Assembly: GCA_963708045.1 (NCBI GenBank)
Contig: OY970181.1
Coordinates: 707,740 to 771,739, forward strand
DNA length: 64,000 nt
Direction of reading: 5' to 3'
From: an uncultured bacterium
GTDB lineage: Bacteria > Patescibacteriota > Patescibacteriia > CAIQCM01
Within the stretch, counting starts at the first letter, position 1. Every line of letters begins with the position of its first letter. Below, in pieces: positions 16,628-39,789 of this stretch. The position numbers and the translations under genes are program-made. Under the pieces are notes generated by a model. It searched no databases. It saw only the letters and a list, made by a program, of their open reading frames with translations, and had not been told where the DNA came from.

Positions 16628-16641
16628 ACGTCCACAACCCG

Positions 16642-16687: not shown

Positions 16688-16761
16688 AGTTTTTTTTAAG
16701 GATTGACAGATGCTTTAAACTGGGTTGATATAGAAGAGCCATTTATGGGCGAGGAGGGAAA

Positions 16762-17532: not shown

Positions 17533-17567
17533 ACTCTCAAACGAAGGAAATACGACCCTCGTTTCAC

Positions 17568-17607
17568 ACCCGCGACAGAAGTATTCGTTACTTCTCTCGC
17601 GGGTGTT
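17568..17607 (+). terminator. Intrinsic terminator (near-identical to 16642-16687)
   Basis: cacccgcgacagaagtattcgttacttctctcgcgggtgtttttgtttttt. Confidence 0.75.
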
Positions 17608-17652
17608 TTTGTTTTTTAATTTTTGTATATTGTAATTTAAATAGACGAAAAA

Positions 17653-19045: not shown

Positions 19046-19092
19046 TGGCACGTGGCACGTAGCACGTGGCACGTAGTTTGTAGTCTGTGTTG
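19046..19092. repeat. Tandem heptamer array, family 2 (second copy)
   Basis: gcacgtggcacgtagcacgtggcacgtagtttgtagtctgtg directly abutting tRNA-Glu 5' end. Confidence 0.8.
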
Positions 19093-20884: not shown

Positions 20885-20923
20885 TTGACGAACTAATTAG
20901 CACTCTATACAATAGAGTGCTAA
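20885..20923 (+). promoter_or_regulatory. hrcA promoter (TTGACG-17-TACAAT) with perfect CIRCE operator TTAGCACTC-N9-GAGTGCTAA
   Basis: ttgacgaactaaTTAGCACTCtatacaataGAGTGCTAAaat; CIRCE consensus 20897-20923. Confidence 0.9.
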
Positions 20924-20932: not shown

Positions 20933-21592
20933 ATGAAGAAACTAGAGGTCAGAAAGGAAACAATTCTGGATTCTTTGGTTAGAGAATACGTAAAAACCGC
21001 CGAGCCGGTAAGTTCGCTGTACCTTTCGGAAAAAGCCGAGTTGGCGGTTTCTTCGGCAACGGTTAGAAATGAATTGGCCGATTTGGAAAACGAGGGGTTT
21101 CTTGTTCAGCCGCATACGTCCGCCGGCCGTATTCCAACCGAAAATGCTTACCGGTATTTTGTTGAATATTTGTCGCGGCCGCAAAAAAACGACAGCGTTT
21201 TTGTTGCTCGGCTGCAATCGTTTTTTAAAGAACGCGACGACGCCAAAGCCGCGGCCAAGATGCTGGCGGCCGAAACTAAGGAATGCGTTTTTGTTCTGTT
21301 TGAACCGAATGATACCTATTATACCGGACTGACTAATCTTTTTTCGCAGCCGGAATTTGGCGAGCGCGAGATTGCCTTAAATATTTCCGGCGCCCTTGAT
21401 CAGTTGGACGAAGCTGTGTCCAAATTAAAACACGAAGGCGGCGTTAAAACGCTTATTGGTCGCGAGTGTCCGCTTGATCGGCGCTCTTCAATTGTTTATG
21501 TGGGCGCTGGAAAGCGGATCGTCGGTGTTGTTGGGTTGGTGCGAATGGATTACGAAAAAATTATTGGGCTCTTAAATTCACTCAATAAATAA
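20933..21592 (+). CDS. hrcA: Heat-inducible transcription repressor HrcA (short form)
   Basis: AEPVSSLYLSEK...VSSATVRNELADLENEGFLVQPHTSAGRIPTENAYRYFV matches HrcA N-terminal wHTH; preceded by CIRCE. Confidence 0.85.
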   Translation: MKKLEVRKETILDSLVREYVKTAEPVSSLYLSEKAELAVSSATVRNELADLENEGFLVQPHTSAGRIPTENAYRYFVEYLSRPQKNDSVFVARLQSFFKERDDAKAAAKMLAAETKECVFVLFEPNDTYYTGLTNLFSQPEFGEREIALNISGALDQLDEAVSKLKHEGGVKTLIGRECPLDRRSSIVYVGAGKRIVGVVGLVRMDYEKIIGLLNSLNK

Positions 21593-21657
21593 CTGTTAAC
21601 TGTTAACTTTTAACTATTAGGTTGCTAAAAGTTAAAAGCTAAAAGTTAAAAGTTAAT
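21591..21657. repeat. Intergenic heptamer-unit inverted repeat, family 4
   Basis: aactgttaactgttaacttttaactattaggttgctaaaagttaaaagctaaaagttaaaagttaat. Confidence 0.8.
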
Positions 21658-22101
21658 ATGGAAGAAATAAATAATAATCAACAAGAACCAATAATTGAAG
21701 AATTAAAAAAGCAGGCCGAAGAAAATTTAAACGGTTGGAAACGATGCAAAGCTGATCTGATAAATTTGCAGAACGATACTGCGCGCGAACGCATTGAATG
21801 GGCAAAATTTGCCGCCGCCGGTTCGCTCCAAAGACTGCTCCCGGCCATTGACACGCTTGCCGCCGCCGCCGCGCATCTTCCTGAATTAAATGACACCGTT
21901 CGCAAGTTTGAAGAGTATTTAAAAGGTGAAGGTATTACGGAAGTTGAAGCGGTTGGTATATACAATCCTTCGCTACACGAGGTAATCAGCAAAGAAAAAA
22001 AAGAAGGCGCCGAAGCGGACGTGATCACGACGGTTGTTCAAAAGGGGTACCGGCTACACGACAAATTACTCCGCCCAGCCAAAGTGATTATTGCGGAATG
22101 A
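21658..22101 (+). CDS. grpE: Nucleotide exchange factor GrpE
   Basis: GrpE coiled-coil + C-terminal beta domain pattern (RERIEWAKFAAAG..., GYRLHDKLLRPAKV). Confidence 0.8.
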   Translation: MEEINNNQQEPIIEELKKQAEENLNGWKRCKADLINLQNDTARERIEWAKFAAAGSLQRLLPAIDTLAAAAAHLPELNDTVRKFEEYLKGEGITEVEAVGIYNPSLHEVISKEKKEGAEADVITTVVQKGYRLHDKLLRPAKVIIAE

Positions 22102-22133: not shown

Positions 22134-22238
22134 GGCGTCATTCCGAGCCTGTCTGGTCGCTCTGTCCAAGGCGAGGAATCACGAAGCTTGCTAGAGACTT
22201 TGAGTTCCCTCATCGCTTCGGCTCTTCGGGATGACGCC
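22134..22238 (+). repeat. 105-nt structured repeat element (copy 1) with ~14-bp terminal inverted repeats
   Basis: ggcgtcattccgagcctgtctggtcgctctgtccaaggcgaggaatcacgaagcttgctagagactttgagttccctcatcgcttcggctcttcgggatgacgcc; ~88% identical by eye to the reverse complement of 35827-35931. Confidence 0.8.
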
Positions 22239-22290
22239 AAAAACGGATTAGGTATTAGATATTAGAAATTAGATATTAATAATAAAATAT

Positions 22291-22707
22291 ATGTCCTTAA
22301 CTCCTTGGCACGACCCGTTTGAAGAAGTTGAACAAATGATGAAAGATTTTCGTCCGTCAATTTCGGGCGGCAATTTCTCATTTGCTCCCTCCGTTAACGT
22401 TTACGAAACCGAAAAAGCGGTTGTGGTTGAGTCGGCGATCCCTGGCGTTGATCCGAGTGACGTTGAAATTTTTATTGAAAACGATGTTTTGACGATAAAA
22501 GGCCAGACAAAAAAATCTTCGGAGCTTGATGAAAAAGATTTTTATCGCAAAGAAATACGTGAAGGTGGTTTCTTACGCCGCGTCGCCTTGCCGGTTGGGG
22601 TTTTGGGCGAACAAACAGAAGCAGAATTTAAAGACGGTTTATTAAAAATAACAGCACCTAAGGCAGAATCGCCAAAGGCAAAAACGATCAAAATTAACAT
22701 CAAATAA
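22291..22707 (+). CDS. Small heat shock protein (Hsp20/alpha-crystallin family)
   Basis: Alpha-crystallin domain pattern (FRRVALPVGV...DGLLKITAPK). Confidence 0.85.
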   Translation: MSLTPWHDPFEEVEQMMKDFRPSISGGNFSFAPSVNVYETEKAVVVESAIPGVDPSDVEIFIENDVLTIKGQTKKSSELDEKDFYRKEIREGGFLRRVALPVGVLGEQTEAEFKDGLLKITAPKAESPKAKTIKINIK

Positions 22708-22721
22708 AATAATATTTACTT

Positions 22722-24551
22722 ATGCCAAAAATAATTGGAATTGATTTAGGAACGTCAAACAGCGCCGCTTCGGTTATGCAAGGCGACGCACCGATAATGA
22801 TTCCCGCGGCTGAAGGCGCGTCTATCGGCGGCAAGGCGTTTCCGTCGTATGTCGCAATGACCAAAGACGGACAGTTGCTCGTCGGCGAACCAGCACGTCG
22901 CCAGGCGGTCGCTAACCCCGAAGGAACGGTTTACGCGGCCAAGCGCAAGATGGGAACGAGCGAAAAAATAACCATGGCCGGTAAGGAATATACTCCTCAG
23001 CAAATTTCCGCGTTTATTCTTCAAAAAATAAAGCGTGACGCAGAGGCATATTTGGGTGAACCGGTTTCAAAAGCGGTTATTACCGTGCCAGCGTATTTTA
23101 ACGATGCCCAACGCCAAGCAACTAAGGATGCTGGCGCGATTGCTGGGCTGGAAGTTGTTCGCATTGTAAACGAACCAACAGCGGCGGCTTTGGCCTATGG
23201 TTTAGACAAAGGTCATAAGGATCAAACGATTTTAGTTTTTGATCTTGGGGGTGGAACCCTGGACGTTACAGTAATGAAATTCGGTGGCGGCGTTTTTGAA
23301 GTTATTTCAACTTCTGGCGACACGCATTTGGGCGGGACGGATATGGATAATGCAATCACAAGCTTTGTCGTTTCCGAATTTAAACGCGAAAGCGGCATTG
23401 ATATTTCCGTCAACAAAATGGCGACGATTCGTCTTAAAGAAGGTGTGGAAAAAGCTAAGATAGAACTTTCCACGGTTTTGGAAACGGAAATTAATTTGCC
23501 GTTTATTACCGCTGACGCAACGGGACCAAAACATTTGGTAATGAAATTAACGCGCGCCAAACTAGAAGAATTAGTCGGGCCAACGATTGATCGTTGTCGT
23601 CATCCGTTAGAGCAGGCGCTTACCGATGCCAAACTTACGCCAACCGAAGTTGGCGCGGTAATTATGGTCGGTGGTCCAACGCGAATGCCGATCGTCTCCG
23701 GTTTTGTGGAAAAATATTTAAACAAAAAAGTTGAACGCGGCGTTGACCCAATGGAATGTGTTGCCAAGGGCGCGGCGGTTCAAGCGGCAATTCTTTCGGG
23801 CGACGTTAAGGATGTATTGCTTTTGGACGTTACGCCGCTTACCCTTGGTATTGAAACAATGGGCGGTGTTTCCACGCCGCTTATCACGAGAAATACAACT
23901 GTCCCAACTTCAAAGAGCCAGGTCTTTTCCACGGCCGCGGACAACCAGCCGTCGGTTGAAATCCACGTCCTTCAAGGCGAACGTCCGATGGCTTCCGACA
24001 ATCGCACGCTTGGACGCTTTATGCTAGACGGAATTCCGCCGTCGCCGCGCGGCTTGCCGCAAATTGAAGTAATTTTTGACATTGACGCAAACGGCATTCT
24101 TACGGTTACGGCCAAAGACAAAGCGACAAACAAAATGCAAAATATCGTCATTCGCGATACCTCGGCGCTTTCTAAGGAAGAAATTGAACGGATGCAAAAA
24201 GAAGCGCAGGCGCACGCCGAAGAAGATCGCAAAAAGAAAGAAATTATTGAATTGCGCAATCAAGCCGACGCCACTATTTACCAAACGGAAAAAACAATTA
24301 AAGAAGTTGGTGAAAAAGTTCCGGCTGATATTAAAAAAGCGATTGACGAAAAAATCGCGGCGGTTAAGGCGGCCAAAGACGGCACCGACGCGGCCACGCT
24401 TAAAAAAGCGCTGGACGAACTTTCCGAAACAATCCAAAAGATCGGCGCCGAACTCTACAAAAATCAAACCCCGCCCGCGGGCAACCCGACGACTGAACCG
24501 AAAAAAGATGATAATGTTGTTGAAGGCGAAGTCGTTGATGACAAGAAATAG
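22722..24551 (+). CDS. dnaK: Chaperone DnaK (Hsp70)
   Basis: [19 protein letters not shown], full-length Hsp70 with acidic/Lys-rich C-terminus. Confidence 0.95.
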
Positions 24552-24562
24552 ATTAAAACCTG

Positions 24563-25621
24563 ATGAAAGATTATTACAAATCTCTCGGTATAGATAAAAA
24601 CGCCACGACGGAAGACATTAAAAACGCCTTCCGTCGTTTGGCGATGGAACATCATCCGGACAAGGGCGGTGAAGCGGAAAAGTTTAAAGAAATCAACGAG
24701 GCGTATCAGGTGCTTTCCGACGAAAAAAAGCGCGGCCAGTATGATCGCTATGGCACGGTTAATGATAATCCTTTCCAAGGCGGGGGCGCGCAAGGGTTTG
24801 GTGGACAAGGTTTTAATGTTAATTTTGAAGACCTCGGCGATATTTTTGGCGGCTTTGGCGATATTTTTGGAATGGGTGGGCGAGGCGAACGCGCTAATCG
24901 CGCCGGCGCCGACATTCACGCCGACATCACGCTTGATTTTAACGAAGCGGTTTTTGGCACGGAAAAAAATGTTGATTTGTATAAACAAGTCGTTTGCCAT
25001 AACTGTACCGGCACGGGTGGTGAACCGGGTTCCAAAGAAAAGAAATGCAACGAGTGTCATGGTAGTGGTCAGGTAACACGGACACAGCGCACAGTTTTTG
25101 GCCAGTTTAATACGGCGGCAACTTGCACGACCTGCGGCGGACGCGGCAAGACTTATGAAAGCAAATGTTCTCATTGTTCCGGACGGGGGATTGTCAAAGA
25201 AACAAAAAATCTCAAAATTAAAATTCCAGCGGGAATTGACAACGGTTCAACACTTCGGGTAAGGGGCGAGGGCGAAGCGATGGCGAGCGCCGCGGCTGGG
25301 GACTTGTATATCACGATGCGCGTTAAGCCAAGTCCTGACTTTGTCCGCGACGAATATAATATTTTAAGTGATTTGGTTTTGTCGTACCCAGCGGCCGCGC
25401 TTGGTACGGTTAAGCCGGTGAAAACGGTTGATGGCGAGGTTGAACTTAAAATCCCCGCAGGCACGCAAAGCGGAAGTGTGATAAAATTAAAAAACAGGGG
25501 AGTGCCAAGGTTAAACGCTGACGTTCGCGGCGATCATCTAGTACGAGTAATTGTTGAAGTGCCGCGCAAGCTTTCTAAGAAGCAGAAACAGCTCTTGGAG
25601 CAGTTACGAGATAATGAATAA
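24563..25621 (+). CDS. dnaJ: Chaperone DnaJ
   Basis: J-domain with HPD ([10 protein letters not shown]), G/F-rich region, four CxxCxGxG zinc-finger repeats. Confidence 0.95.
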
Positions 25622-25712
25622 TTAAGAGGTTTCAGGTTCAAGGTTCAAGGTTTTAGGTGATTAACGTTACGACGTGCTACCTAACACCTAACACCTAAAA
25701 CCTTGAACCTAA
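25622..25712. repeat. Intergenic heptamer-unit inverted repeat, family 3 (second copy)
   Basis: ggtttcaggttcaaggttcaaggttttaggtg...cacctaacacctaacacctaaaaccttgaacctaaac. Confidence 0.8.
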
Positions 25713-25715
25713 ACA

Positions 25716-26234
25716 ATGAGAGATTTCTTTTCCAACTTCAACCCCGCCAACCCGACCTGGGACTTATTCCTGATCCTGTTTTTTGTCATTGCCACTTTTC
25801 TTTACGGCCTCACGCTTGGCCGCGCTAAAGTGGTTGTGCAGATTGTTTCGTCGTATATGACGGTGGCGATTCTTGCCTCGGCGCCTTTTCTTGGCAGGTT
25901 TGAAGCGCAGACGCCGCTTAATCACACGCTTTTTTATTTAGCCGCCTTTTTTGCCGTTTTTACTTTGCTTTGCGTGATGCTTTCAAAAAGCGCTTTTCAT
26001 CTGCACCTTGCCGAAGGCAAGGGTGGCTGGTTGGATGTGCTGATTCTTTCAATCGTTCAAATCGGCTTTTTGTCGTCAATTGTTTTGTCTTCAATGTCGG
26101 GTTTTATTTTAAGCCACCTGTCGCCGATAACCAGGAAATTATTTGCCGAAGAACCGGCGCAGTTTATCTGGACGATTTTGCCAATCATGGCGCTCATAAT
26201 TATCCGCGGCCGACCAAAGAAGTTGGTTAAATAA
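25716..26234 (+). CDS. Hypothetical polytopic membrane protein
   Basis: 4-5 hydrophobic helices; no clear family. Confidence 0.45.
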   Translation: MRDFFSNFNPANPTWDLFLILFFVIATFLYGLTLGRAKVVVQIVSSYMTVAILASAPFLGRFEAQTPLNHTLFYLAAFFAVFTLLCVMLSKSAFHLHLAEGKGGWLDVLILSIVQIGFLSSIVLSSMSGFILSHLSPITRKLFAEEPAQFIWTILPIMALIIIRGRPKKLVK

Positions 26235-26244
26235 ATTTGTCTGT

Positions 26245-26775
26245 TTAAAACGTTTGAAAAGAAATTTTTGTCGCGTCAAAAGAATCTGATTGGGAGATGT
26301 CGTTGTCCGCAAAAGCGGTTACGACCATTGTCAGTTTGATGTCTGTTGGATCAATATTTATTTCGCGCATCGGTGAAGGCGGGGCGACGATTATTCCTTT
26401 TTTAAAATCAGCTTGAAATTTTTTTAGATCAGCTTTTATTTCGGCGGCCGATTTGCTCACCATAGCGACAAATTTAGTGTTAGGAGTAAAGTGGGCAATT
26501 TTTGTTTCGGTTTTTGGGTCAGCGCCGGAACCGTTAGTTGGGGTAAAGGCAATAATTAGATCGTTTTTGTCAACGCTTTTAACAGTGCCGGTGATATTAG
26601 TAATCGGCGAGCCTTTGACTTTGGTGGTATTTTTGGTTCCTATCTCATTGATTCGGCTGCCTTCGGTCAAGTCTTTGATAAGCGTGGTATTGGAGACGAT
26701 ATTTACGATGGACAAAGATAGACCGGTTAAAATGACGAAAACCAAAATGAGCCAATATATTCGCGTTAATTTCAT
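26245..26775 (-). CDS. Hypothetical membrane-anchored exported protein
   Basis: N-terminal TM anchor (IYWLILVFVILTGLSLSIV); Thr/Asn-rich. Confidence 0.45.
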   Translation of the reverse strand: MKLTRIYWLILVFVILTGLSLSIVNIVSNTTLIKDLTEGSRINEIGTKNTTKVKGSPITNITGTVKSVDKNDLIIAFTPTNGSGADPKTETKIAHFTPNTKFVAMVSKSAAEIKADLKKFQADFKKGIIVAPPSPMREINIDPTDIKLTMVVTAFADNDISQSDSFDATKISFQTF

Positions 26776-26873
26776 AGGTTTTGATTTATTTACGAAATCA
26801 GTTTTTCACCGATATTAATTCATTATATATCTATGGACGAGAAAATGAAATAAAGCTATTCTGTAGTCATAAT

Positions 26874-28295
26874 ATGCTGCAAATCTATAATACTCTTACG
26901 AGAGAAATTGAAGAATTTAAAACCTTAAATGGCAAGCGGGTATCAATGTATAATTGTGGTCCAACGGTTTATAGTTATCCGCACATTGGTAATCTCCGCG
27001 CTTGTCTTTTTGCCGATACCCTGCGGCGGTATCTGGAATTTTCGGGTTTCAAAGTTAGGCAAGTAATGAATATAACGGATGTTGGGCATATGCAAGGCGA
27101 TGCCGATACCGGAACGGACAAAATGGAAGCGGCCGCCGCTAAGGAAAAAATTGATCCGCTGGCTGTCGCGCGCAAATACGAAAAAATATTTTTTGAATAC
27201 ATAAATTTGCTTAATTGCGAGCCAGCTTATAAATATCCTCGCGCTTCGGAACATGTGAAGGAAATGATTAAAATCATCGCGTCTTTGCTTAAAAATGGCT
27301 ATGCGTATCTTTCGGAAAATGATGTTTATTTTGACGTTACAAAATTCTCCGCCTATGGCAATCTTTCTGGAAACACCATTGCCGCTTTGGAAGCCGGGCA
27401 TCGTGTGGAAATAAATTCTAAAAAACGTAATCCGGCTGATTTTGCGCTGTGGATTCATAATCCTAACCACCTGCTACAGTGGGACGCGCCGTGGAGCCGC
27501 GGCTACCCAGGTTGGCATATTGAATGCTCGGCAATGTCAATGAAATATTTAGGCGAAACGATTGATCTTCACACCGGCGCCGAAGACAACAAGTTTCCCC
27601 GTCATGAGTGCGAAATTGCGCAGTCAGAAGGCGCGACTGGAAAAAAGTTTGTCCGTTATTGGTTGCACTTGTCGTTTCTTTTAGTTGACGGAAAAAAGAT
27701 GGCCAAATCGGATAATAATTTTTATACTTTGGACGATCTTACAAAGAAGGGCTATGAGCCGCGCGCGGTGCGTTTTGCGCTTATCTCGGCTCATTACCGC
27801 GAACAGCAGAATTTTACGTTTGCCGCGCTTGATGCGGCAAAAAGCGCTGTTTCCAAATTGGACGCGGTTTGGTCGCGCCTTTCGGAGAAAAAAGTTTTGT
27901 CTAAAAATACTGAGCCAACGGATTTAATATTATTGTCGGATAAAGCTAGAGAAGGTTTTATTGCGGCAATGGATGACGACCTTGGTATGCCAAAGGCACT
28001 TGGTATCTTGTTTGAATTTATTCGCGATACCAACGCGGCTTTGGATAAAGGTGCGACTGGTCAAGCGGCAGCTAAAAAACTCATCAAAGACGTGGTTTTT
28101 GGTGTTCTTGGGCTTGAATTAAAAAATATTGCCGCCGAAATTGTTCCGGCGGCGGTGGCTGAGCTGCTTAAAGAACGGATCGCCGCGCGAATAGCAAAAG
28201 ATTATAAAAAAGCCGACGAACTTCGCGGCCAAATAAACTCATTGGGTTTTGAAATAGAAGACGGAAGCGCTGGCGCGCGCGTTAAGAAAATTTAG
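26874..28295 (+). CDS. cysS: Cysteine--tRNA ligase
   Basis: CGPTVYSYPHIGN (HIGH motif), KMAKS (KMSKS), class I aaRS architecture; start moved to ATG 26874. Confidence 0.9.
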   Translation: MLQIYNTLTREIEEFKTLNGKRVSMYNCGPTVYSYPHIGNLRACLFADTLRRYLEFSGFKVRQVMNITDVGHMQGDADTGTDKMEAAAAKEKIDPLAVARKYEKIFFEYINLLNCEPAYKYPRASEHVKEMIKIIASLLKNGYAYLSENDVYFDVTKFSAYGNLSGNTIAALEAGHRVEINSKKRNPADFALWIHNPNHLLQWDAPWSRGYPGWHIECSAMSMKYLGETIDLHTGAEDNKFPRHECEIAQSEGATGKKFVRYWLHLSFLLVDGKKMAKSDNNFYTLDDLTKKGYEPRAVRFALISAHYREQQNFTFAALDAAKSAVSKLDAVWSRLSEKKVLSKNTEPTDLILLSDKAREGFIAAMDDDLGMPKALGILFEFIRDTNAALDKGATGQAAAKKLIKDVVFGVLGLELKNIAAEIVPAAVAELLKERIAARIAKDYKKADELRGQINSLGFEIEDGSAGARVKKI

Positions 28296-28298
28296 ATT

Positions 28299-29234
28299 CT
28301 AGATCCATTTTTTCTTTTTTAGATACAAGAAAGTCGTAATGCCGATTAAAAGCATTAAGCCGTTGGTAATGAAAAAACCGTAAGGCGGGCCAAAGGGCGA
28401 ACCGTCCGCGGTATTTATTCCAATAATCGTCGCGAAAAGTTCCATGGTAAAAATAACCGTTGTAACACTGGTTAAAATTTTCATTATTCGGTTGATATGG
28501 TTTGAGACGAGGGTGTTCATTGTGTCGTGAAGCGTATCAATTGTTTCACGGTCAGCTTCTAACGAATTCCAAATATCCACCGTTTGGTTGATTACCTGGT
28601 TAAAGTTGACGATATTAACCGGTGAAAGCTGGGAAACGGCGTCTTTTAATTGAATAAGAGTATAGCGGTGGGTTTTGAGAGCTTTTCTAACGCGAGTATT
28701 GTTGTTTTTAAGGATTAGCGACTCGCGAATGATTTTATCGTTGTCGTAGTTCGTAAACATTCTTTCTTCAACATCGCGAATGTCGCGTGACAATTCCAAA
28801 AGAAGCGGGAACATTGAGCGATATATCTTTTCTAAGATAAAAAGCAAAACGTTTGATGGCGATTCGGAAAGAAAGTGTTCACGACTGGTGGCGTTTCCCA
28901 TTTCGTCCAAAATAGAGACCATTTCCACGAGTCGGTTGGCGTGATTTACAGTGATGAGTGTATTTTCATTTAAAATGATGTCCAATTCAACCTCGTGGAT
29001 ATCTCTGGTTTTTTCGTCGCGAACTGGCAAGATTAAAACCAAAAAGACATAATCTTTACGGATGATGCATTTGGTATTTTGGAGGGGCGGCAAAAGTTCG
29101 CGCAAGTCGTGCTCGTGAAGCGGAAAACGTGCGTTTAGCTCGCGAAGTGTATGCAAATTAGCCTCGGAAACATTAAGCCAAGTCGTGCGGCGGCCGGTAA
29201 ATTCTTGAATTTTTGTGGAAACTTTCTTTGCCAT
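28299..29234 (-). CDS. CorA-family divalent cation transporter (GIN variant of GMN motif)
   Basis: CorA-like cytoplasmic domain then two C-terminal TM helices; ATIIGINTADG where canonical CorA has YGMNF; terminal KKKKWI. Confidence 0.6.
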   Translation of the reverse strand: MAKKVSTKIQEFTGRRTTWLNVSEANLHTLRELNARFPLHEHDLRELLPPLQNTKCIIRKDYVFLVLILPVRDEKTRDIHEVELDIILNENTLITVNHANRLVEMVSILDEMGNATSREHFLSESPSNVLLFILEKIYRSMFPLLLELSRDIRDVEERMFTNYDNDKIIRESLILKNNNTRVRKALKTHRYTLIQLKDAVSQLSPVNIVNFNQVINQTVDIWNSLEADRETIDTLHDTMNTLVSNHINRIMKILTSVTTVIFTMELFATIIGINTADGSPFGPPYGFFITNGLMLLIGITTFLYLKKKKWI

Positions 29235-29294
29235 AAAAATATTATACCACAGAGTGGGAATGCAGGCTTTTGATTTTTTTGTTATACTATAACA

Positions 29295-29768
29295 ATGCCT
29301 GAAGATATAGAAAAAAATCTATCGTCAGCCGAGACGCCAAAGTTGGAATCCGAACCAGTTTTGGAAAAAGAAAAAGTTTCCTCTGCCGAAACAGCGCCAA
29401 CCAAAGAAGCTCTGCCTGAGCCGGTTTTGGCGACGCCGATTTCAATGAGTGCGCCCATAAGTGCGCCGCCCGCTCGCGTTGATCCAATTACCGAATCAGT
29501 GGAAAAAATTCTGTCCGAGGACTTGGCCGATTTTTATCGGGCAATGCCGCCGGCTGATCGGGAAAAGTTTAAAATCAAGGGCGAAGAAACCGTTTCCAAA
29601 ATTCGCAAGATTATGGACGGCACGACAATTAAAGTAAAAGAAGTGCTTAAGCTTATCGTCATTTGGATTAAACTAATCCCGGGAATAAATAAATTTTTTC
29701 TTGAACAAGAATCAAAAATAAAAACCGATAAGATCATTGAACTTCATAGCCGGATGCATGGTAAGTAA
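29295..29768 (+). CDS. Hypothetical protein (157 aa), acidic/Pro-rich N-terminus
   Basis: ORF directly upstream (21-nt gap) of VirD4-like ATPase; possibly co-transcribed. Confidence 0.4.
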   Translation: MPEDIEKNLSSAETPKLESEPVLEKEKVSSAETAPTKEALPEPVLATPISMSAPISAPPARVDPITESVEKILSEDLADFYRAMPPADREKFKIKGEETVSKIRKIMDGTTIKVKEVLKLIVIWIKLIPGINKFFLEQESKIKTDKIIELHSRMHGK

Positions 29769-29788
29769 TTTGGTCTAGGAGGATAATT

Positions 29789-32326
29789 ATGCTGCAACTT
29801 GTTGGCACCATTCAACCTGAAATATTAGAAACCACAACCCAAGGGACTGTGCCGCTTGTTGCTTATGTTTTATTGGTCTTGCTTGGCGTTTATGCGGTCG
29901 TTTTTTTGTCTCTTTTGTGCGTCCGAAAATATTTTCGCAAAAAACATCGTGAAACGCGCGGTTTTAAAAACGAAGTTTTGCAGATTACCGTTCCTAAAGA
30001 GGCGTCCGAAAAAAATTCGGTAAAAGACGGCGAAAAATCAATGAGCGAGATTCAGGAAAAGATTGGCGCCGCGGAATCGCTTTTTGCCGCCCTTGGCGGG
30101 ATGAAGCCGGAGAAGGGTATAAAAAAGTGGTTATTTGGTCGTGAAGATGAAATTTCTTTTGAAGTTATCGCTCACGACGGGCTGGTTAAATTTTATGTTG
30201 CCGTGCCGCCCGCGCTCCGAAATTTTTTAGAAGAACAGATCCACGCCAACTATCCGCACGCCGAAATTGAAGATATAGAAGATTATAATATTTTTACGCC
30301 CAAAGGGGCGATTGTCGGCGCTTATTTAACTTTAAAAAAGAAGAATTATTTTACTTTAAAAACTTACCGTAAACTTGAAATAGACCCGATGTCCAATATT
30401 ACGAGTTCGCTCGCGACGGTGAATATTCCCGATGGTGCGGCGATTCAGATAATTGTTCGTCCGGCCAAGAGCGAATGGCGCAAGGTTGGCGTAAAAATTG
30501 CGTCGTATATGCACCAGGGAATGTCACTTGGAAAAGCTCAAGACAAGGCAAGGGGTGGAGTCTTTGAGATAATCCGTCAGTTGCAAACCAAGAAAAAAGG
30601 CGAGCCGGAAAAAGAACACCACCTTTCTTCGCTTGAGGAAGAAATGGCCAAGGGGATTGAAGAAAAGGTTTCTAAAGCCGGACTCCAGGCGGTGATTCGT
30701 GTGGTTGCGAGCGCCGAAACCGAACTGACCGCCAGTCGCCACCTTAATGATATTATAAACGCGATGAGCCAGTTTAATATTTACGAGTATGGCAACGCTT
30801 TTCAAAAAATAGAACCGCGCGGTAAGACGAATTTTATCAACGGATTTATTTACCGCAGTTTTGACGAAAAGAAAAAAATAATTTTGAATGCCGAGGAAAT
30901 GGCCTCGGTTTATCATTTGCCTGGTCACTGGATTGAAACGCCGAATATTAATTGGTTGCTCGCGCGGCATGCGGCGCCGCCGATTAATATGCCGAAAGAT
31001 GGTATTTCTTTAGGATGGAATGAATTTCGCGGTATTGAAACGGTTGTTAAAATTAAACGCGGCGATCGTCGTCGCCATCTTTACACCATTGGTCGCTCTG
31101 GTACCGGAAAATCGCAATTTATGGAACAAATGGCCATTCAAGATATTCAGAATGGCGACGGTGTTTGTATTGTTGATCCGCATGGCGACTTTGTTGACCA
31201 CGTCTTGCCGCATATTCCGCCCGAACGCGCCGACGACGTGATTATTTTTGATCCCTCGGACGTCGCACGTCCGGTTGGGCTAAATATGCTTGAAGCTGGT
31301 TCAACCGACCAAAAAGATATGGCTGCCCAAGAAATGGTTTCCATATTTTACGAACTTTTTGGCGCGGAAATGATTGGCCCCATGTTTGAGCACCAGATGC
31401 GCAACGTGATGTTGACCTTAATGTCCGACGATGAAAATACTGGCACGATTGCCGAAATTCCACGGATGTTTTCGGACGCTGATTTTCAGAAAAAATGGGT
31501 GAAGAAAGTAACTGACCCCGTGATTCGCGCTTTTTGGGAAAAAGAAATGGCCAAGACTTCGGACTTTCACAAATCGGAAATGCTTGGCTATCTTGTTTCT
31601 AAAGTTGGCCGGTTTGTGGAAAACGAAATGATGCGTAACATCATCGGCCAAACGCATTCGTCGTTTAATTTCCGCGACGTGATGGACAAGAAAAAAATCC
31701 TGCTCATAAATCTTTCTAAGGGAAAAACCGGCGACGTGAACGCGCGGCTTCTTGGTCTCATTGTTGTTTCTAAGCTCACCATGGCGGCGCTTTCGCGCGC
31801 TGATACGCCCGAAGAAGATCGGCACGATTTTTATCTCTACATTGACGAGTTCCAAAATTTTATTACCGAATCCATTAGCACGATTTTGTCCGAAGCACGC
31901 AAATACAAATTAAACTTGATTATTGCCCATCAGTATATGGGACAGCTTTCGCCCAAGGGCGACACCAAAATTCGCGATGCCGTCCTTGGAAACGCGGGTA
32001 CGATTGCGACGTTCCGCATTGGCGTTGAAGACGCCGAAATTCTTGAGAAAGAATTTGCGCCGACTTTTAACGCTTTTGATCTCGTCAACGTTGAAAAATA
32101 CACGGCCTACATAAAATTGCTGATTGATAATACTGGTTCAAAACCGTTTAATATGCACACTTATCCGCCGCGCAAGGGAAATCCCGAGCTCGCGGCGGCC
32201 ATTAAACAGCTGTCGCGCCTTAAGTACGGCCGTGATCGCACCATTGTTGAGGCTGAAATATTGGAGCGCTCCCAGCTTGGCGCTTCGCTTGTCCCGCCAA
32301 ATTTTGGTCCGGAAAAGACGGCTTAA
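29789..32326 (+). CDS. Membrane-anchored VirD4/TraG-type (T4SS coupling protein-like) P-loop ATPase
   Basis: N-terminal TM (VPLVAYVLLVLLGVYAVVFLSLL), Walker A GRSGTGKS, Walker B YLYIDEFQNF; overall resembles TrwB/TraG/VirD4 DNA-transfer ATPases (family assignment from memory, not searched). Confidence 0.55.
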   Translation: MLQLVGTIQPEILETTTQGTVPLVAYVLLVLLGVYAVVFLSLLCVRKYFRKKHRETRGFKNEVLQITVPKEASEKNSVKDGEKSMSEIQEKIGAAESLFAALGGMKPEKGIKKWLFGREDEISFEVIAHDGLVKFYVAVPPALRNFLEEQIHANYPHAEIEDIEDYNIFTPKGAIVGAYLTLKKKNYFTLKTYRKLEIDPMSNITSSLATVNIPDGAAIQIIVRPAKSEWRKVGVKIASYMHQGMSLGKAQDKARGGVFEIIRQLQTKKKGEPEKEHHLSSLEEEMAKGIEEKVSKAGLQAVIRVVASAETELTASRHLNDIINAMSQFNIYEYGNAFQKIEPRGKTNFINGFIYRSFDEKKKIILNAEEMASVYHLPGHWIETPNINWLLARHAAPPINMPKDGISLGWNEFRGIETVVKIKRGDRRRHLYTIGRSGTGKSQFMEQMAIQDIQNGDGVCIVDPHGDFVDHVLPHIPPERADDVIIFDPSDVARPVGLNMLEAGSTDQKDMAAQEMVSIFYELFGAEMIGPMFEHQMRNVMLTLMSDDENTGTIAEIPRMFSDADFQKKWVKKVTDPVIRAFWEKEMAKTSDFHKSEMLGYLVSKVGRFVENEMMRNIIGQTHSSFNFRDVMDKKKILLINLSKGKTGDVNARLLGLIVVSKLTMAALSRADTPEEDRHDFYLYIDEFQNFITESISTILSEARKYKLNLIIAHQYMGQLSPKGDTKIRDAVLGNAGTIATFRIGVEDAEILEKEFAPTFNAFDLVNVEKYTAYIKLLIDNTGSKPFNMHTYPPRKGNPELAAAIKQLSRLKYGRDRTIVEAEILERSQLGASLVPPNFGPEKTA

Positions 32327-32505
32327 GTCTCAAATTAATCAGTATTTAGCCAATATCTACTTCTTGCGGTTACTCATGATTGACAAGAGTGTGGATAAAT
32401 GATAGCATTCATCTAAGGTCAAAGATCCCAAAAGCGGTGAGTAATCAATTCGTTTGCAAGGTCATGGCCACTTAAAGGTCGTTAAATCACAATCTAAACA
32501 ATACT

Positions 32506-32718
32506 ATGGCCTTCTCAAATCAAGGCGGTTTTGGTGGACAGGGCGGTTTCGCCCCTCGCCAAATGGTAGACGTTACGGCTATGAATCTGAAGTGCAGCGA
32601 ATGCGGCGCTCCGATCACCGAACTCCCATTTAGCCCGGATCCATCTCGCACTGCCACCCTGAAGTGCCGCGATTGCATGCGCAAATTTAAGCAAGCTCGC
32701 GGACCTCGCCGCTTCTAA
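32506..32718 (+). CDS. Small zinc-ribbon protein (70 aa) with Gly-rich N-terminus
   Basis: CSECG...KCRDC (CxxC-N19-CxxC); followed by strong terminator. Confidence 0.5.
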   Translation: MAFSNQGGFGGQGGFAPRQMVDVTAMNLKCSECGAPITELPFSPDPSRTATLKCRDCMRKFKQARGPRRF

Positions 32719-32737
32719 TTGAAGCAACTAAAAACAT

Positions 32738-32770
32738 CCCCGCCAATGGCGGGGATGTTTTGGTTTTAAA
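32738..32770 (+). terminator. Intrinsic terminator
   Basis: aaaacatccccgccaatggcggggatgttttggtttt: 10-bp GC stem + T-run. Confidence 0.8.
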
Positions 32771-32892
32771 ATTCTGTAGCAATTTTTTTCTTGCCTCAAA
32801 AATCAGATATGATGCCGTTTGTGAATATGTTGGCGTTGGTAATTTTTTTGGCTTAACCGTTTCGGCAAGAAAAAATTTGCAACAGAATTTTA
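32771..32892. repeat. Long-range inverted repeat (~28-bp arms, ~65-nt loop) between convergent genes
   Basis: aaaattctgtagcaatttttttcttgcc ... ggcaagaaaaaatttgcaacagaatttt. Confidence 0.6.
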
Positions 32893-32904
32893 AATAACGG
32901 TTAG

Positions 32905-33531
32905 TTAGTGGGTCTCTGGGTTTTCAAAATGGTGGCGAAGGAGGTTGTTTCTAATCGCGCGAGCGGTTAGTTGAAGTCGCCAAAGATCGTCCTGTTTTCT
33001 GAGACTGCGCAGAGTATCAATTTTTTTGACACAGTCGTCAATAAATATCTCCATTCGCCTAAGTAATTTTTCACAAACACCGTTTAAGCTACAGTCGGAA
33101 AGTTCATTATCAAATTCTTTGGAAATTTCGGCGGCGAGTTCGCGATCGCTCGTAACCGATGTTACATAATCGCGAATGTCGTGTACTTGTTGGGGTAAGA
33201 TTGGTTCTGGTACCGGCGTTTTGGTTTCATTGCGCCGCGCTTGGTTGTCAAAATAATGGATAAACGCGCGCGCGGTTTCTAAAGCGTTGGCGTCGTCTGC
33301 TTTTAGTGCGCGAACGGTTTCTTGTTCAAATAATGGTAAAATGCCGCGCTCGCGCTCGGTGCCCCATTTTTCTCTAACTTGCTCCCAACCGGGCGTGCCT
33401 TCGTGCTCGTGAATAAACGTTAATAAATCTTTTTCCGTCTTCAAACCCATCCGCTCCGAGCGGCGTTCTAAAACGGCTTTTTGATTGATAAATGATTCTC
33501 CTCGTGGCATAAAATTAGTGGTGCGTTTCAC
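32905..33531 (-). CDS. Hypothetical protein (~200 aa); start ambiguous (GTG 33531 or ATG 33510)
   Basis: ORF immediately downstream of era on the minus strand; no recognisable family. Confidence 0.45.
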   Translation of the reverse strand: MKRTTNFMPRGESFINQKAVLERRSERMGLKTEKDLLTFIHEHEGTPGWEQVREKWGTERERGILPLFEQETVRALKADDANALETARAFIHYFDNQARRNETKTPVPEPILPQQVHDIRDYVTSVTSDRELAAEISKEFDNELSDCSLNGVCEKLLRRMEIFIDDCVKKIDTLRSLRKQDDLWRLQLTARAIRNNLLRHHFENPETH

Positions 33532-34375
33532 GGTCTATCCAATGTTCGTCAACTTCAACTTCTAAATCTAAAAAGATTTTTGTTTGCATTGCCGTTTCCA
33601 ACTCGTACCTTGCGGCGGAGCCAATTTCTTTAATTTTTTCGGCATTTTTTCCGATGATCATTTTTTTGTAGCGCTTGTCGGTTGTTAAAATGTCAGCGCG
33701 AATATATAACGTGCCGTCGGGGCGTTTTTCCATTTCTGCAACTTCCACCGTTGCCGAATATGGTATTTCTTGGTGCATTTGAATAAAAACTTTTTCACGG
33801 ATCAGTTCCTCTACCCATTTTTTCGTTTCCATGTCCGAGAATTGGAATTCGGGATAATACGGTTCGCCTTCGGGGAGGAGCTCAAAGATTTTATCTTTAA
33901 GCGCATTAAGATTGGTTTCGTTGAGGGCGGAAATTTCTATGAGCGCGTCGCATTTTTCACCAAGACGGCGGAATTCAAAAATAAACGGCTTCTTTTTGTC
34001 GGGAAGGTCGCATTTATTAATGACCATTATTTTTGGTCGCCGAGTCGCTTCAATTAAGTTCCAAATGCGATGTTCTTCCGAACCAATGGCGCGGGTCGGG
34101 TCGGCAACATAAACAATAAGCTCAGCACCGTCCAAGGCTGATCTGACTTCGCGGTTAAGCGCTTCGGTTAGTTTGTCGCGGCTTTTATCAAAAACTCCCG
34201 GCGTATCAACAAAAACCGCCTGACCGCGGGGATCATGAAGAATCCCGCGGATGTTTTGGCGGGTCGTTTGCGGCTTGGGCGTAACAATTGCGACCTTAGT
34301 GCCGACAAGCGAGTTAAGCAAAGTTGATTTGCCGACGTTTGACCGTCCGGCGAGAATAACGAAACCTGATTTCAT
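33515..34375 (-). CDS. era: GTPase Era
   Basis: GRSNVGKST (G1), DTPG (G3), NKCD (G4), C-terminal KH domain. Confidence 0.9.
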   Translation of the reverse strand: MKSGFVILAGRSNVGKSTLLNSLVGTKVAIVTPKPQTTRQNIRGILHDPRGQAVFVDTPGVFDKSRDKLTEALNREVRSALDGAELIVYVADPTRAIGSEEHRIWNLIEATRRPKIMVINKCDLPDKKKPFIFEFRRLGEKCDALIEISALNETNLNALKDKIFELLPEGEPYYPEFQFSDMETKKWVEELIREKVFIQMHQEIPYSATVEVAEMEKRPDGTLYIRADILTTDKRYKKMIIGKNAEKIKEIGSAARYELETAMQTKIFLDLEVEVDEHWIDRETHH

Positions 34376-34555
34376 AAAAATGGACGATGAACTATGAACA
34401 ATGGACGATTAATATTTGGCTCGGTTCGTCCGGGTTGTTCATTGTTTGTTGTTCGTCGTTCATCAATCCTGCGCTTAAAAGAAGAAAAAGTCAATTACGA
34501 CAGGCGCGGTAATGAAAACGAGGGCACGATGGTTAATGTGTTTTTTCATTTGAAA

Positions 34556-35128
34556 TTACTCTATAGTGATGGCGCACCAGTATTTGTTGTTTTTTGTGCA
34601 GGTTGGGGCACAAGCAAAAGCGGCGAAAGTCCCGCCCATACAAAGGTTTACATTTGTCACTTGTTCCATTCCCCAGTGCAGAGTTGGACCCACAACCAAG
34701 CCTTGTTGAGCAGTTAAGTTATACAAAAAAGCATCGCCAATCCACCCGTTATTGGTTGGATCAGGATCGTCGGGAATTTTGGCGATATACGGAGCCAAAG
34801 CATTATCCAGAGAAGTGCAACCATGAAACGGAGCTCCATACCAACACGTTCCTGCGTCTCCGTGTCCTAAACAGTACCAACCTGATGACCCAGCGGCACA
34901 GGCCGGGGATAGTGTTCCGGGGTCTGGGAAATTTCCGTTAACTTCGCGATAAAGCTGGATAGCTGTTTTTATTTGTTTGGCATCGGCAATACGTATTGCG
35001 TCGCGCGCTTTGCTTCTCGTGGAAACCAAAGACACGACCGCAATTGTGGAAAGCAGGCCAATAATTGCGATGACAACCAAGAGTTCAATAAGAGTGAAAG
35101 CGCGGCGATTGTGAAAATGTTTTCTCAT
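34556..35128 (-). CDS. Type IV pilin (paralog 1 of tandem pair)
   Basis: RRAFTLIELLVVIAIIGLLSTIAVVSL prepilin N-terminus; ARSKARDAIRIADAKQ conserved with neighbour. Confidence 0.8.
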   Translation of the reverse strand: MRKHFHNRRAFTLIELLVVIAIIGLLSTIAVVSLVSTRSKARDAIRIADAKQIKTAIQLYREVNGNFPDPGTLSPACAAGSSGWYCLGHGDAGTCWYGAPFHGCTSLDNALAPYIAKIPDDPDPTNNGWIGDAFLYNLTAQQGLVVGPTLHWGMEQVTNVNLCMGGTFAAFACAPTCTKNNKYWCAITIE

Positions 35129-35131
35129 TGT

Positions 35132-35683
35132 TTATGGTGTTAGGGTCAAGGCGCACCAGTAGCGGTTTCGTCCGGCGCTGTCACCATCCCATCTGCCGAA
35201 AGTACCTCCAAAACAATTGGTGGCGTTGGTCACTTGGTCATAGCCCCAATGAAGAGCTGGAGCTGACGATCCGCCGACCGAACCTTGATTCATATACAAA
35301 TAAGCGTCGCCGTAGGTGTTCGGGGCATGCTCCGGATCGTCGGGGATGTTTGCGATGTAAGGCACAAGAGCGTTGTTTAAAGCCGTGCACCCACGAGCGG
35401 TATTGGTATGGCAGCTGACGCCGTCGACGTGGCCAAGACAGCACATACCTAAAATGGATGTGCCACAATTGCAGCCGAGCGCGCCGCTCGCGTCGGGATA
35501 TTTGTTATTGGCATCGTAGTATAGTTGCATAGCCGTTATGAGCTGTTTGATATCGGCTTGCCGCTTGGTGTCGCGCGCCTTGCTTCTTGCAGAACTCAAA
35601 GACACGACCGCGATTGTGGAAAGCAATCCAATGATCGCGATAACGACTAATAGTTCGATAAGAGTAAAGGCGCGGCGAGACAT
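35132..35683 (-). CDS. Type IV pilin (paralog 2 of tandem pair)
   Basis: MSRRAFTLIELLVVIAIIGLLSTIAVVSLSSARSKARDTKRQADIKQ; listed N-terminal extension to 35803 rejected (runs into repeat element). Confidence 0.8.
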   Translation of the reverse strand: MSRRAFTLIELLVVIAIIGLLSTIAVVSLSSARSKARDTKRQADIKQLITAMQLYYDANNKYPDASGALGCNCGTSILGMCCLGHVDGVSCHTNTARGCTALNNALVPYIANIPDDPEHAPNTYGDAYLYMNQGSVGGSSAPALHWGYDQVTNATNCFGGTFGRWDGDSAGRNRYWCALTLTP

Positions 35684-35826
35684 AGACGAAAAATACCTAA
35701 TATCTTCCGCCCATCTCCCGCTTCGGCGGGATTGGGCGGATCCGCTCACACAAATGTGATGAGCGGAAATTTTTAATCCGGACGACCAAATTATTAACAT
35801 CAAATCTTGTCATTGCAAAACTTTCG

Positions 35827-35931
35827 CCGTCATCCCGAAGCGCCGAAGCGATGAGGGAACTCAAAGTCTCTAAACAGGCTCCGTGATTCCTCGTCCTAGG
35901 CAAAGCGACTAAACGGACTCGGAATGACGCC
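35827..35931 (-). repeat. 105-nt structured repeat element (copy 2, inverted orientation)
   Basis: Reverse complement ggcgtcattccgagtccgtttagtcgctttgcctaggacgaggaatcacggagcctgtttagagactttgagttccctcatcgcttcggcgcttcgggatgacgg aligns with copy 1. Confidence 0.8.
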
Positions 35932-35966: not shown

Positions 35967-37307
35967 TTACTTTAGTGTAAGTGCGACAACTGTTTCAATG
36001 TGTGGCGTTTGCGGGAAGAGATCAAGACAACGAGTTTGTTTAATGTCGTAGACCGCGAGTAATTGTTTAAGGTCGCGAGCTAGGGACACGGGATTACACG
36101 AAACGTAAACCAGTCGCTTGGCTTGGTAAGCCACAAGTTCGGAAAGGGCGGACGGGTGAAGTCCTGGTCTTGGCGGGTCAACAACAATTACGTCTGGCTT
36201 GTCGCGCGAAAGAACAATTGGCAAAATTGATTCGGAAGTGCCGGAAGAAAAAATTACGTTGGCGACTTTGTTTAGCATGGCGTTTTCTCGTGCCGCGGCG
36301 ACGGCGGATTCATCCAACTCCACGCCAATTGTTTCCTTGGCCGTTTTTGCGAGGGCAAGGGTAAGAAAACCCGCGCCGCAATAAAGATCAAGGCAAGTTT
36401 CGGTCTTTTTAACGTCGGCAAATTCACAAACGGTATTTTGCAGTTCAGCGGCCATTGCGCTGTTGGTTTGAAAAAACGAGGCTGGCTGAATTTTGTAAAT
36501 AAGGTCGTTAATTTTTTCTGTTAAAAATGGGTTTCCAAAGAGTGGGCGAATTGTTTTGGGAATGGAAAGATCGGTTATTTCCGGATTAATGCCGTGGATG
36601 ATTGAAGTTGCAAAAGGGGAGAGGTTGTCAATTAATTTTTTTTCCGCCGGCAAAGTTGGGGATTCGGCTGAGGTAATAATCATTACCATTCGTTCGCCAG
36701 TATTTTTTCCTTCGCGGATAACGACGTAACGCAAAAGTCCCTTGCCGCTTTTTTGATCGTATGGCGCGACTTTATTTTTTTTAACATAAGCGCGAATAAC
36801 GTCCAAAATTTTTGGGGCGACTTCCGAAAGCATCAAACAATTTGGAAGATTTAATACTTTATTCCAGTGCTCAGGTTCTTTAAGACCGATTTCGCCATTA
36901 AGGCCAATAACATAATCCATTCGGTTGCGATGATGTAACTGGCTTGTAGCACTTTGCAAATGGCTTATCGTTACGGCAAGACCCTCGGCGGCCATTGCCT
37001 TATTTACTGATTCAAGTTTAAGTTCAGACTGACGATCATACTTAATCATCTGCCATGGACAGCCGCCGCAAACACCGGCGCTTTCACAAGGTGGCGGTAT
37101 GCGATCGGATGAAGGGGAAACGATCTCAAGTATTTTAAGGCGCAGCGCGCCTTTGGTTCGCGAGGTTATTATTCCGCGAACGGTTTCGCCGGGTAGGACG
37201 AAATACGCTAAACCATCGCGTTCGTCAATTTTAAAAAGACCGCGCCCTTTTTCGTCGGTGGCATCAATTTTTACGGTAATTTCATCATTTATCTTCGGGC
37301 GTGACAT
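35967..37307 (-). CDS. rlmD: 23S rRNA (uracil-5)-methyltransferase RlmD/RumA-type (TRAM + Fe-S + SAM MTase)
   Basis: N-terminal TRAM domain, Cys cluster (CESAGVCGGCPWQ), SAM-binding DLYCGAGFLTL, catalytic VVDPPRPG. Confidence 0.85.
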   Translation of the reverse strand: MSRPKINDEITVKIDATDEKGRGLFKIDERDGLAYFVLPGETVRGIITSRTKGALRLKILEIVSPSSDRIPPPCESAGVCGGCPWQMIKYDRQSELKLESVNKAMAAEGLAVTISHLQSATSQLHHRNRMDYVIGLNGEIGLKEPEHWNKVLNLPNCLMLSEVAPKILDVIRAYVKKNKVAPYDQKSGKGLLRYVVIREGKNTGERMVMIITSAESPTLPAEKKLIDNLSPFATSIIHGINPEITDLSIPKTIRPLFGNPFLTEKINDLIYKIQPASFFQTNSAMAAELQNTVCEFADVKKTETCLDLYCGAGFLTLALAKTAKETIGVELDESAVAAARENAMLNKVANVIFSSGTSESILPIVLSRDKPDVIVVDPPRPGLHPSALSELVAYQAKRLVYVSCNPVSLARDLKQLLAVYDIKQTRCLDLFPQTPHIETVVALTLK

Positions 37308-39720: not shown

Positions 39721-39789
39721 AACATGAACCATGTACCATGAACCATCCGTTTGGTACATGGTACATGGTTAATGGTTCATGTAAAAAAT
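39721..39789. repeat. Intergenic heptamer-unit inverted repeat, family 1
   Basis: aaacatgaaccatgtaccatgaaccatccgtttggtacatggtacatggttaatggttcatg. Confidence 0.8.

Follow-up and report, generated by a model that had tools for sequence, protein, structure and literature searches.

Two intergenic repeats of a Patescibacteria genome as probable inverted pairs of Ssn-related hairpin motifs

In Neisseria, the 94-aa single-domain GIY-YIG protein SsnA (cd10448) recognizes a repeated sequence called NTS (CGTCATTCCCGCGMAVGCGGGAATCYRG), which contains the dRS3 palindrome: it binds the forward NTS hairpin in single-stranded DNA (ssDNA) only, its cut falls a few nucleotides upstream of the hairpin, it has no activity on double-stranded DNA (dsDNA), RNA or the reverse strand, and it reduces transformation by NTS-bearing DNA (Chenal et al. 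2025, Nat Commun 16:2388; PMC11893778). The same ssDNA binding and cleavage property has been reported for four homologues, the NTS has been generalized to a class of Ssn-related motifs (SRM), and the NTS-ssnA-NTS arrangement has been likened to an insertion sequence (IS) and compared with the REP/RAYT/BIME systems (PMC11893778). Here, we describe two copies, A and B, of an element of about 105 nt in a 64,000-nt stretch (hereafter, the window) of contig OY970181.1 from an uncultured member of the Patescibacteriota. We consider it very probable that each copy is an inverted pair of Ssn-related hairpin motifs belonging to this NTS/SRM family, on the basis of what is observed in their anatomy, in covariation at the level of the single unit, in the association of such units with ssn genes, in the homology of the products of these genes to SsnA, and in the presence or absence of the element among relatives.

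Copy A (105 nt) lies on the plus strand and copy B (106 nt, with one extra base relative to A) on the minus strand (Table 1). The two match in 93 of 107 aligned columns (86.9%), and a profile built from both recovers each of them with an E-value of ~1e-32, far beyond chance for the 64-kb window; neither this profile nor motif searches with mismatches found a third copy within the window. According to Pfam, the gene order around copy A, on the plus strand, is hrcA (20933-21592), grpE (21658-22101), copy A, hsp20 (22291-22707) and dnaK, and that around copy B, on the minus strand, is the gene for an RlmD-like methyltransferase (rlmD; 35967-37307), copy B and a pair of type IV pilin genes (35132-35683 and 34556-35128). 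Copy A starts 32 nt past the grpE stop codon and ends 52 nt ahead of the hsp20 ATG, and copy B starts 35 nt past the rlmD stop codon and ends 142 nt ahead of the pilin ATG at 35683. An earlier note on this DNA had given the same coordinates for copy A, an identity by eye of ~88%, distances of ~50 and ~140 nt to the hsp20 and pilin start codons, and, for both copies, a place inside a same-strand gene pair with the same orientation to the downstream gene, all of which agree with the present alignment and Pfam context. Its second copy, placed at 35827-35931, is indeed there, but starts one nucleotide earlier. The terminal inverted repeats of ~14 bp that it described do exist as inverted ends, but their 3' arm had been idealized: it reads CTTCGGGATGACGCC in A and CTTCGGGATGACGGC in B, and not CTCGGAATGACGCC, the terminal stem contains two G-T pairs, with one additional mismatch in B, and the ends are the outer halves of two separate hairpin units.

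These units are the building blocks of the element. Each copy comprises a left unit, a central spacer and a right unit in inverted orientation, so that the window holds two doublets, or four units, in 64 kb, all of them intergenic. The unit consensus, (C)GTC-ATTCC-GA-[inner stem]-GA-GGAAT-C, opens with an unpaired 5' (C)GTC; the 5-bp stem that follows (ATTCC/GGAAT) encloses a tandem GA/GA and a variable inner stem-loop, and a C stands at the 3' end. The boxes of the left unit are 25 nt apart. In the right units of both A and B, the last base of the stem is A in place of T (GGGAA-C instead of GGGAT-C). When folded as DNA, the left unit of A adopts the structure ....(((((..((((...(((...)))))))..))))).., which has the shape of the Neisseria NTS, and in the left units of both copies the CGTC is left unpaired, as it is in the NTS control; both thus form the oriented hairpin that characterizes SRM and NTS. 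The substitutions between the copies, which had been recognized before as patches between identical cores, map to the left unit, in its variable inner stem, and some of them are compensatory (GCCU/AGGC in A versus GUCC/GGAC in B). A generic scan of the window for GTC plus a 5-mer, followed by the reverse complement of the 5-mer plus C, gave 18 matches, against a mean of 7.5 and a maximum of 15 in shuffled sequences; only the two known left units stand out among these, the other 16 matches not being unit-like.

The units share boxes with the NTS. The NTS reads CGTCATTCC...GGAATC and the window unit CGTCATTCC-GAG...CGA-GGAATC, with the boxes in the same arrangement; with the NTS written as CGTCATTCCC...GGGAATC, the corresponding form of the left units in the window is CGTC-ATTCC...GGAAT-C. 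In both, an unpaired CGTC precedes a stem that begins with ATTCC and closes with GGAAT, followed by C, all in the same orientation. Both are multi-copy and intergenic, and inverted doublets are also found at the Neisseria ssnA locus. The window units differ in having the tandem GA/GA interruption and the long variable inner stem, in the degeneracy of their right units, and in their host, which is a small-genome bacterium of the Patescibacteria, or candidate phyla radiation (CPR), type. The dRS3 and intergenic mosaic elements of Neisseria also have a palindromic core, ATTCC(C)...(G)GGAAT, and pairs of their units enclose short variable intergenic segments, often beside surface-protein genes (PMC11893778). 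However, these names are specific to Neisseria, where the core is a continuous GC-rich stem of 6-9 bp and the elements number hundreds per genome (PMC11893778), as opposed to two doublets in the window. Between copy B and the pilin start codon (~35700-35775, minus strand), there are, in addition, two GC-rich hairpins, CCGCTCATCACATTTGTGTGAGCGG and CCGCCCAATCCCGCCGAAGCGGGAGATGGGCGG, the second of which has a TCCCGC/GCGGGA palindrome similar to the GC-rich palindrome at the core of the Neisseria NTS/dRS3.

Beyond the window, the stand-alone unit, GTCATTCCGAG-[variable hairpin]-CGAGGAATC, is very widespread in public collections. In the inverted-pair form, B1-H1-B2-spacer-B3-H3-B4, boxes B3 and B4 repeat B2 and B1, respectively, as reverse complements. 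A census of the doublet pattern GTCATTCCGAG-H1-GAGGAATC-H2-GATYCCTC-H3-YCGGRATGAC, which both window copies fit, found it at at least 120 genome loci (one genome per species) in more than 10 phyla, the hosts including Acidobacteriota, Chloroflexota, Verrucomicrobiota, Gemmatimonadota, Planctomycetota, Omnitrophota, Proteobacteria, Bacteroidota, Firmicutes and several CPR lineages (Portnoy-, Gottesman-, Wolfe-, Doudna- and Magasanikbacteria). Units occur in extragenic DNA as singlets, doublets and clusters, with up to 13 of them in one locus. The exact subfamily of the window was found in neither viral nor metagenome contigs by subfamily-specific DNA patterns, and searches of the literature for the literal element sequence returned PCR primers only. 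Hairpin units are also present in a set of related phage contigs of high GC content with many proteins in common (IMG/VR; L007, L012, L014, L015, L017, L021-L023, L031, L033, L035 and L036), some of the contigs having several copies.

The pairing within these units is maintained despite sequence change. In the right unit of the doublets, the Y of GATYCC and the R of GGRAT form C-G in 52 cases, T-A in 61 and T-G in one, and C-A is never seen. Likewise, in units adjoining ssn genes (described below), the two 5-mers are perfectly complementary in 140 of 150 cases, over at least eight stem variants, including ATTCT/AGAAT, ATTCC/GGAAT, ATCCT/AGGAT and ATCCC/GGGAT. The two units of a doublet differ in stem variant in about half of the cases, and here the end-to-end stem is imperfect while each unit hairpin is perfect. 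Since the pairing covaries within units whereas the long stem is often imperfect, the conserved and functional module is the unit of ~30-45 nt, and not the 105-nt stem.

A link to Ssn emerged from an all-against-all comparison of the open reading frames (ORFs) around doublets, which gave one cluster of small ORFs spanning three phyla. The encoded proteins (92-103 aa) consist of a single GIY-YIG domain (PF01541), and units lie tightly on either side of their genes in L068 (Portnoybacteria), L127 (Methylophilus) and L158 (Alistipes). In the reverse direction, 80 metagenome loci (L174-L253) were picked solely by similarity to the GIY-YIG protein: boxes are present within 350 bp of the gene in 66 of these, and on both sides of it in 45, against a background in the far flanks of 0.43 boxes per kb. 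The canonical layout at ssn loci is B1-H1-B2, a short leader, the ORF and B3-H3-B4; the ORF lies between B2 and B3 and, therefore, the gene sits exactly at the spacer position of the gene-less doublets. For comparison, the SsnA orthologue was taken from an N. gonorrhoeae chromosome filed among the plasmid records of PLSDB (NZ_CP119140.1 and NZ_CP119142.1 are both 2.17-Mb N. gonorrhoeae chromosomes filed in this way). It is 94 aa long, has tyrosines at positions 6 and 17 as published (PMC11893778), and its gene is flanked by NTS units, inverted doublets among them. In an hhalign comparison, SsnA aligns end to end with the three unit-bracketed proteins, with a probability of 99.4%, an E-value of 6.8e-22 and 39% identity over 88 columns. 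Judged by sequence, the unit-bracketed protein is an Ssn, and the units can be said to flank single-domain GIY-YIG genes of ~94 aa that belong to the Ssn clade.

Several observations weigh against placing the window elements in this family. The published SRM search pattern, HGTCWYN(0-2)YYVSBRHN(0-5)WNVSBRGN(0-2)RNCYNB, has no match in the window, although it matches the NTS consensus and gives seven matches at the Neisseria ssnA locus. However, it also misses all 143 of the 143 units that adjoin ssn homologues in L174-L253. It fails on the window units because it permits neither a stem interrupted by GA nor a long inner stem, and its failure reflects a narrow pattern rather than non-homology; as the pattern is blind to ssn-adjacent units too, we therefore file the element as an SRM variant and record the failed test. 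Furthermore, the energies of single-unit DNA hairpins are not significantly below those of shuffled sequences (z from -1.5 to 0.0), the degenerate right units of A and B may no longer be Ssn substrates, and no ssn or other GIY-YIG ORF is present within the 64-kb window (the source being a contig of 1,188,223 bp, or 1.19 Mb).

The inverted ends of ~14 bp and the length of ~100 bp could also be those of a classical miniature inverted-repeat transposable element (MITE), that is, a derivative formed by deletion from a DDE-transposase IS, with terminal inverted repeats and target-site duplications. Of three candidate explanations in the earlier note, its MITE-like mobile element comes closest to the present result, in that the element is multi-copy and interspersed, and is present or absent in the same spacer among relatives (see below). 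Also like MITEs such as the Correia elements, it may lie between genes of one operon. However, neither a target-site duplication nor a transposase accompanies it. The flanks of 144 doublets contain no direct repeat and extend the palindrome instead (T/C before GTCAT, A/G after ATGAC); a GATTAGGT repeat near copy A is part of a local heptamer array. Moreover, the internal boxes are conserved as much as the ends, which are themselves halves of autonomous hairpin units, units also occur singly, the full-length form carries just a 94-aa GIY-YIG nuclease and no transposase, and no IS with these ends and a DDE transposase was seen. We regard a classical MITE as extremely unlikely.

The architecture, with its hairpin singlets, inverted doublets and extragenic clusters, equally matches that of repetitive extragenic palindromic (REP) sequences and the BIMEs or REPINs built from them, which are mobilized by a RAYT (Y1 HUH) transposase; here, too, a gene for a small nuclease is flanked by the repeats, and the repeats are hairpins in ssDNA. 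Yet the enzyme differs: the gene bracketed by units of the form GTCATTCC...GGAATC encodes a GIY-YIG nuclease. A search of 172 loci (~1.2 Mb of element-bearing DNA) with E. coli RayT as probe found three RAYT-like ORFs only (L128:4267-4746, L023:3747-4364 and L015:1410-2165), each associated with a different palindrome family, unrelated to the present units (e.g. GGGGGTCGGAGCTTCAGCTCCGAC in L128). Sequence conservation across phyla, as seen in this repeat family, is also unusual for REPs. Mobilization by a RAYT is, accordingly, a most improbable account of the elements.

Comparison of the window with related loci, in which the flanking proteins are 57-84% identical to those of the window, revealed three intergenic sites of variable occupancy. 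In the grpE-hsp20 spacer, an element is present in the window (spacer of 189 nt) and in L254 (184 nt; Hsp20 84% identical to that of the window), and is absent, with the same synteny, from L255 (106 nt; Hsp20 84% identical) and L256 (43 nt; 62%). Downstream of rlmD, the window has an element and L258, L259 and L260 (75%, 74% and 57% identity) have none; in L258 and L259 both pilin genes are also missing, and era directly follows rlmD. Conversely, the spacer between band7 and hrcA lacks an element in the window, where it is 62 nt long, and in L256, whereas L254 and L255 have doublets of differing stem types at this site, just 5' of the promoter and CIRCE (Table 1). Because occupancy differs in this way among relatives, the element must have been gained and lost on a short evolutionary scale. 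The grpE-hsp20 spacers of the relatives are too diverged for a clean empty-site alignment that would define the insertion point. Copy A appears as a mosaic: its left unit is closer to that of the L254 orthologue (91.5%), whereas its remainder is closer to copy B (90% versus 78%), which suggests gene conversion between copies within the genome.

The empty orthologous sites bear directly on the proposal, made in the earlier note, that the element is a cis-regulatory RNA (a thermometer or attenuator) shared by the stress and pilus genes; under such a reading, a transcribed hairpin would control the translation of, or read-through into, hsp20 and the pilin gene. Each copy does precede a gene and is on its sense strand, the RNA fold predicted for copy A is good (-44.1 kcal/mol, z = -2.6), and the G-U pairs of the terminal stem work on the sense strand only. 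RNA thermometers such as ROSE and fourU are likewise structured sequences 5' of small heat-shock genes. However, the RNA fold of copy B is no better than that of shuffled sequences (z = -0.6), and the element cannot occlude a ribosome-binding site, as it ends 52 nt (A) and 142 nt (B) before the ATG; unlike a thermometer, it includes neither the ribosome-binding site nor the start codon. It is not kept at the hsp20 spacers of L255 and L256, or 3' of rlmD in L258-L260, its family adjoins unrelated genes across more than 10 phyla, and the covariation backs unit hairpins, on both strands, rather than one oriented RNA. Furthermore, the operon in which copy A lies has, upstream of hrcA, a perfect CIRCE operator, its canonical regulator, which already explains the heat-shock control. 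A search against Rfam 15, at both gathering and E-value thresholds, matched no family on the window, the local region or 12 related loci, apart from two window tRNAs; near the element, the best E-value was 1. The regulatory RNA reading is largely refuted by the empty orthologous sites, and we attach almost no credence to it; the absence of an Rfam family and of the element at orthologous sites similarly speaks against a small non-coding RNA gene, the third candidate of that note. A hammerhead-like core noticed by eye on the minus strand (GAUGAG...AAAG) was rejected, given that U4 and the GAAA box are missing and that Rfam gave no match.

Whatever its origin, the doublet might now act mainly as a hairpin at RNA 3' ends, serving as a stabilizer or weak terminator for grpE and rlmD in the manner of E. 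coli REPs. The start of both copies 32-35 nt past the upstream stop codon, the long stem that the whole element would form as RNA, and a doublet in an Acidobacteriota genome (L069:1-1163) that lies 32 nt past the stop codon of an rlmD homologue, and so in the position of copy B, although this may be a coincidence, all favour such a role. Against it, the element is dispensable in relatives, and a scan for intrinsic terminators found no terminator-like site and no T-run at A or B, which also leaves the duplicated terminator, the fallback explanation of the earlier note, unsupported. We judge this role very unlikely as the principal one; it could be a side effect alongside the identity of the elements as SRM doublets, and not a replacement for it.

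Table 1. Coordinates of the repeat elements and associated features (window positions unless a locus is named)
Feature	Position	Strand or reading direction	Description
Copy A, whole doublet	22134..22238	+	Left unit, spacer, inverted right unit, GGC/GCC outer-stem extension
Copy A, left unit	22136..22180	reads forward on +	CGTC-ATTCC-GA-[GCCTGTCTGGTCGCTCTGTCCAAGGC]-GA-GGAAT-C
Copy A, central spacer	22181..22203	+	Equivalent to the ssn gene position in full-length elements
Copy A, right unit	22204..22236	reads forward on -	CGTC-ATCCC-GA-[AGAGCCGAAGCGAT]-GA-GGGAA-C; degenerate
Copy B, whole doublet	35826..35931	-	
Copy B, left unit	35885..35929	reads forward on -	Inner stem with compensatory changes relative to A
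Copy B, central spacer	35861..35884	-	1-nt insertion relative to A
Copy B, right unit	35828..35860	reads forward on +	Degenerate GGGAA-C closing box, as in A
CIRCE operator	20897..20923	+	Perfect, TTAGCACTC-N9-GAGTGCTAA; upstream of hrcA; canonical regulator of the operon containing A
L254 doublet, band7-hrcA spacer	L254:1475-1628		Stem type GTCATCGCGAG.../...CTCGCAAAGAC; just 5' of promoter and CIRCE
L255 doublet, band7-hrcA spacer	L255:1539-1719		Stem type GTCATCCCGAG.../...TCAGGACGAC; just 5' of promoter and CIRCE
7-nt-periodic arrays	1531-1626, 6779-6847, 11113-11199, 12477-12576, 19046-19089, 21590-21670, 25622-25712, 34368-34470, 39712-39794, 43447-43518, 51107-51238, 63308-63339		

Other repeats are present in the window. 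Arrays with a 7-nt period (e.g. TGGTACA/TGGTTAA and AACTGTT/AAAAGTT), often forming long palindromes, occupy many intergenic spacers (Table 1); a similar heptamer array is conserved 5' of era in L258, and arrays flank the element in L254. A repeat of ~67 nt, consisting of a hairpin plus a T-run, occurs in four copies (13926-13992, 15492-15558, 16639-16705 and 17564-17630), and the same 4-kb stretch holds two near-identical AT-rich palindromes (13968-14033 and 15569-15626), apparently after paralogous genes. A tRNA occupies 61136-61220, and after a gap of 34 nt comes a second, 94% copy of its 3' half (61254-61305), resembling the scar or att site that an integrated element leaves. Finally, a 13.5-kb Logan contig (run ERR12035931) that carries hsp20 starts 78 nt 5' of this gene, inside copy A (22213 onward), and, by its length, would end ~100 nt before reaching copy B; short-read assemblies apparently break at the repeat.

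Beyond the identity of the elements, we can only infer how they behave. By analogy with the published arrangement, the window copies would be gene-less miniature versions of the SRM-ssn-SRM unit, or else targets into which the gene is copied. When a strand becomes single-stranded, be it in replication, repair or DNA uptake, its forward unit would fold, and a cognate Ssn would be expected, from the published SsnA enzymology, to bind the folded unit and to nick the DNA a few nucleotides to the 5' side. In a doublet, the nick would fall just outside the element on either strand, and none would be made in dsDNA or RNA. The repeats would, in this way, mark sites of ssDNA breakage or recombination, and gene-less doublets may spread or be lost as selfish DNA, in the manner of IS or REP elements.

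The location of the copies beside hsp20 and pilin genes is probably incidental, and any link between copy B and the insertion of pilin genes that it borders is speculative. It is conceivable, although we think it rather unlikely, that the gene-less SRM doublets are non-autonomous mobile elements, moved or copied in trans by Ssn via an ssDNA route and still active in this CPR lineage, and that SRM and Ssn may shape pilin-cassette recombination or uptake-linked exchange. The pilin-cassette idea arises because NTS clusters surround surface-protein genes in Neisseria, and because copy B borders a two-pilin insertion without counterpart in the closest relatives. The window also contains pilin paralogues whose N-terminal regions are 70-77% identical (34950-35108, 35520-35678, 14183-14323 and 51366-51482).

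The element is, then, very probably of a known kind, first published in 2025, and what is new here is its host group and a sequence variant that falls outside the published search pattern. The published family would be extended by a large variant class, with a tandem-GA stem and a long inner stem-loop, and by CPR hosts, both of which that pattern misses, and the structural relation between its forms is clarified by the finding of the ssn gene at the exact spacer position of gene-less doublets. A tempting false lead is also removed: the long stem, the compensatory substitutions and a site 5' of a heat-shock gene together mimic a regulatory RNA, whereas the covariation stems from the DNA hairpin units of a nuclease-associated repeat family. 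Such repeats also seed spurious small ORFs. RNA-discovery scans will keep meeting this family, which has members in more than 10 phyla and no entry in Rfam.

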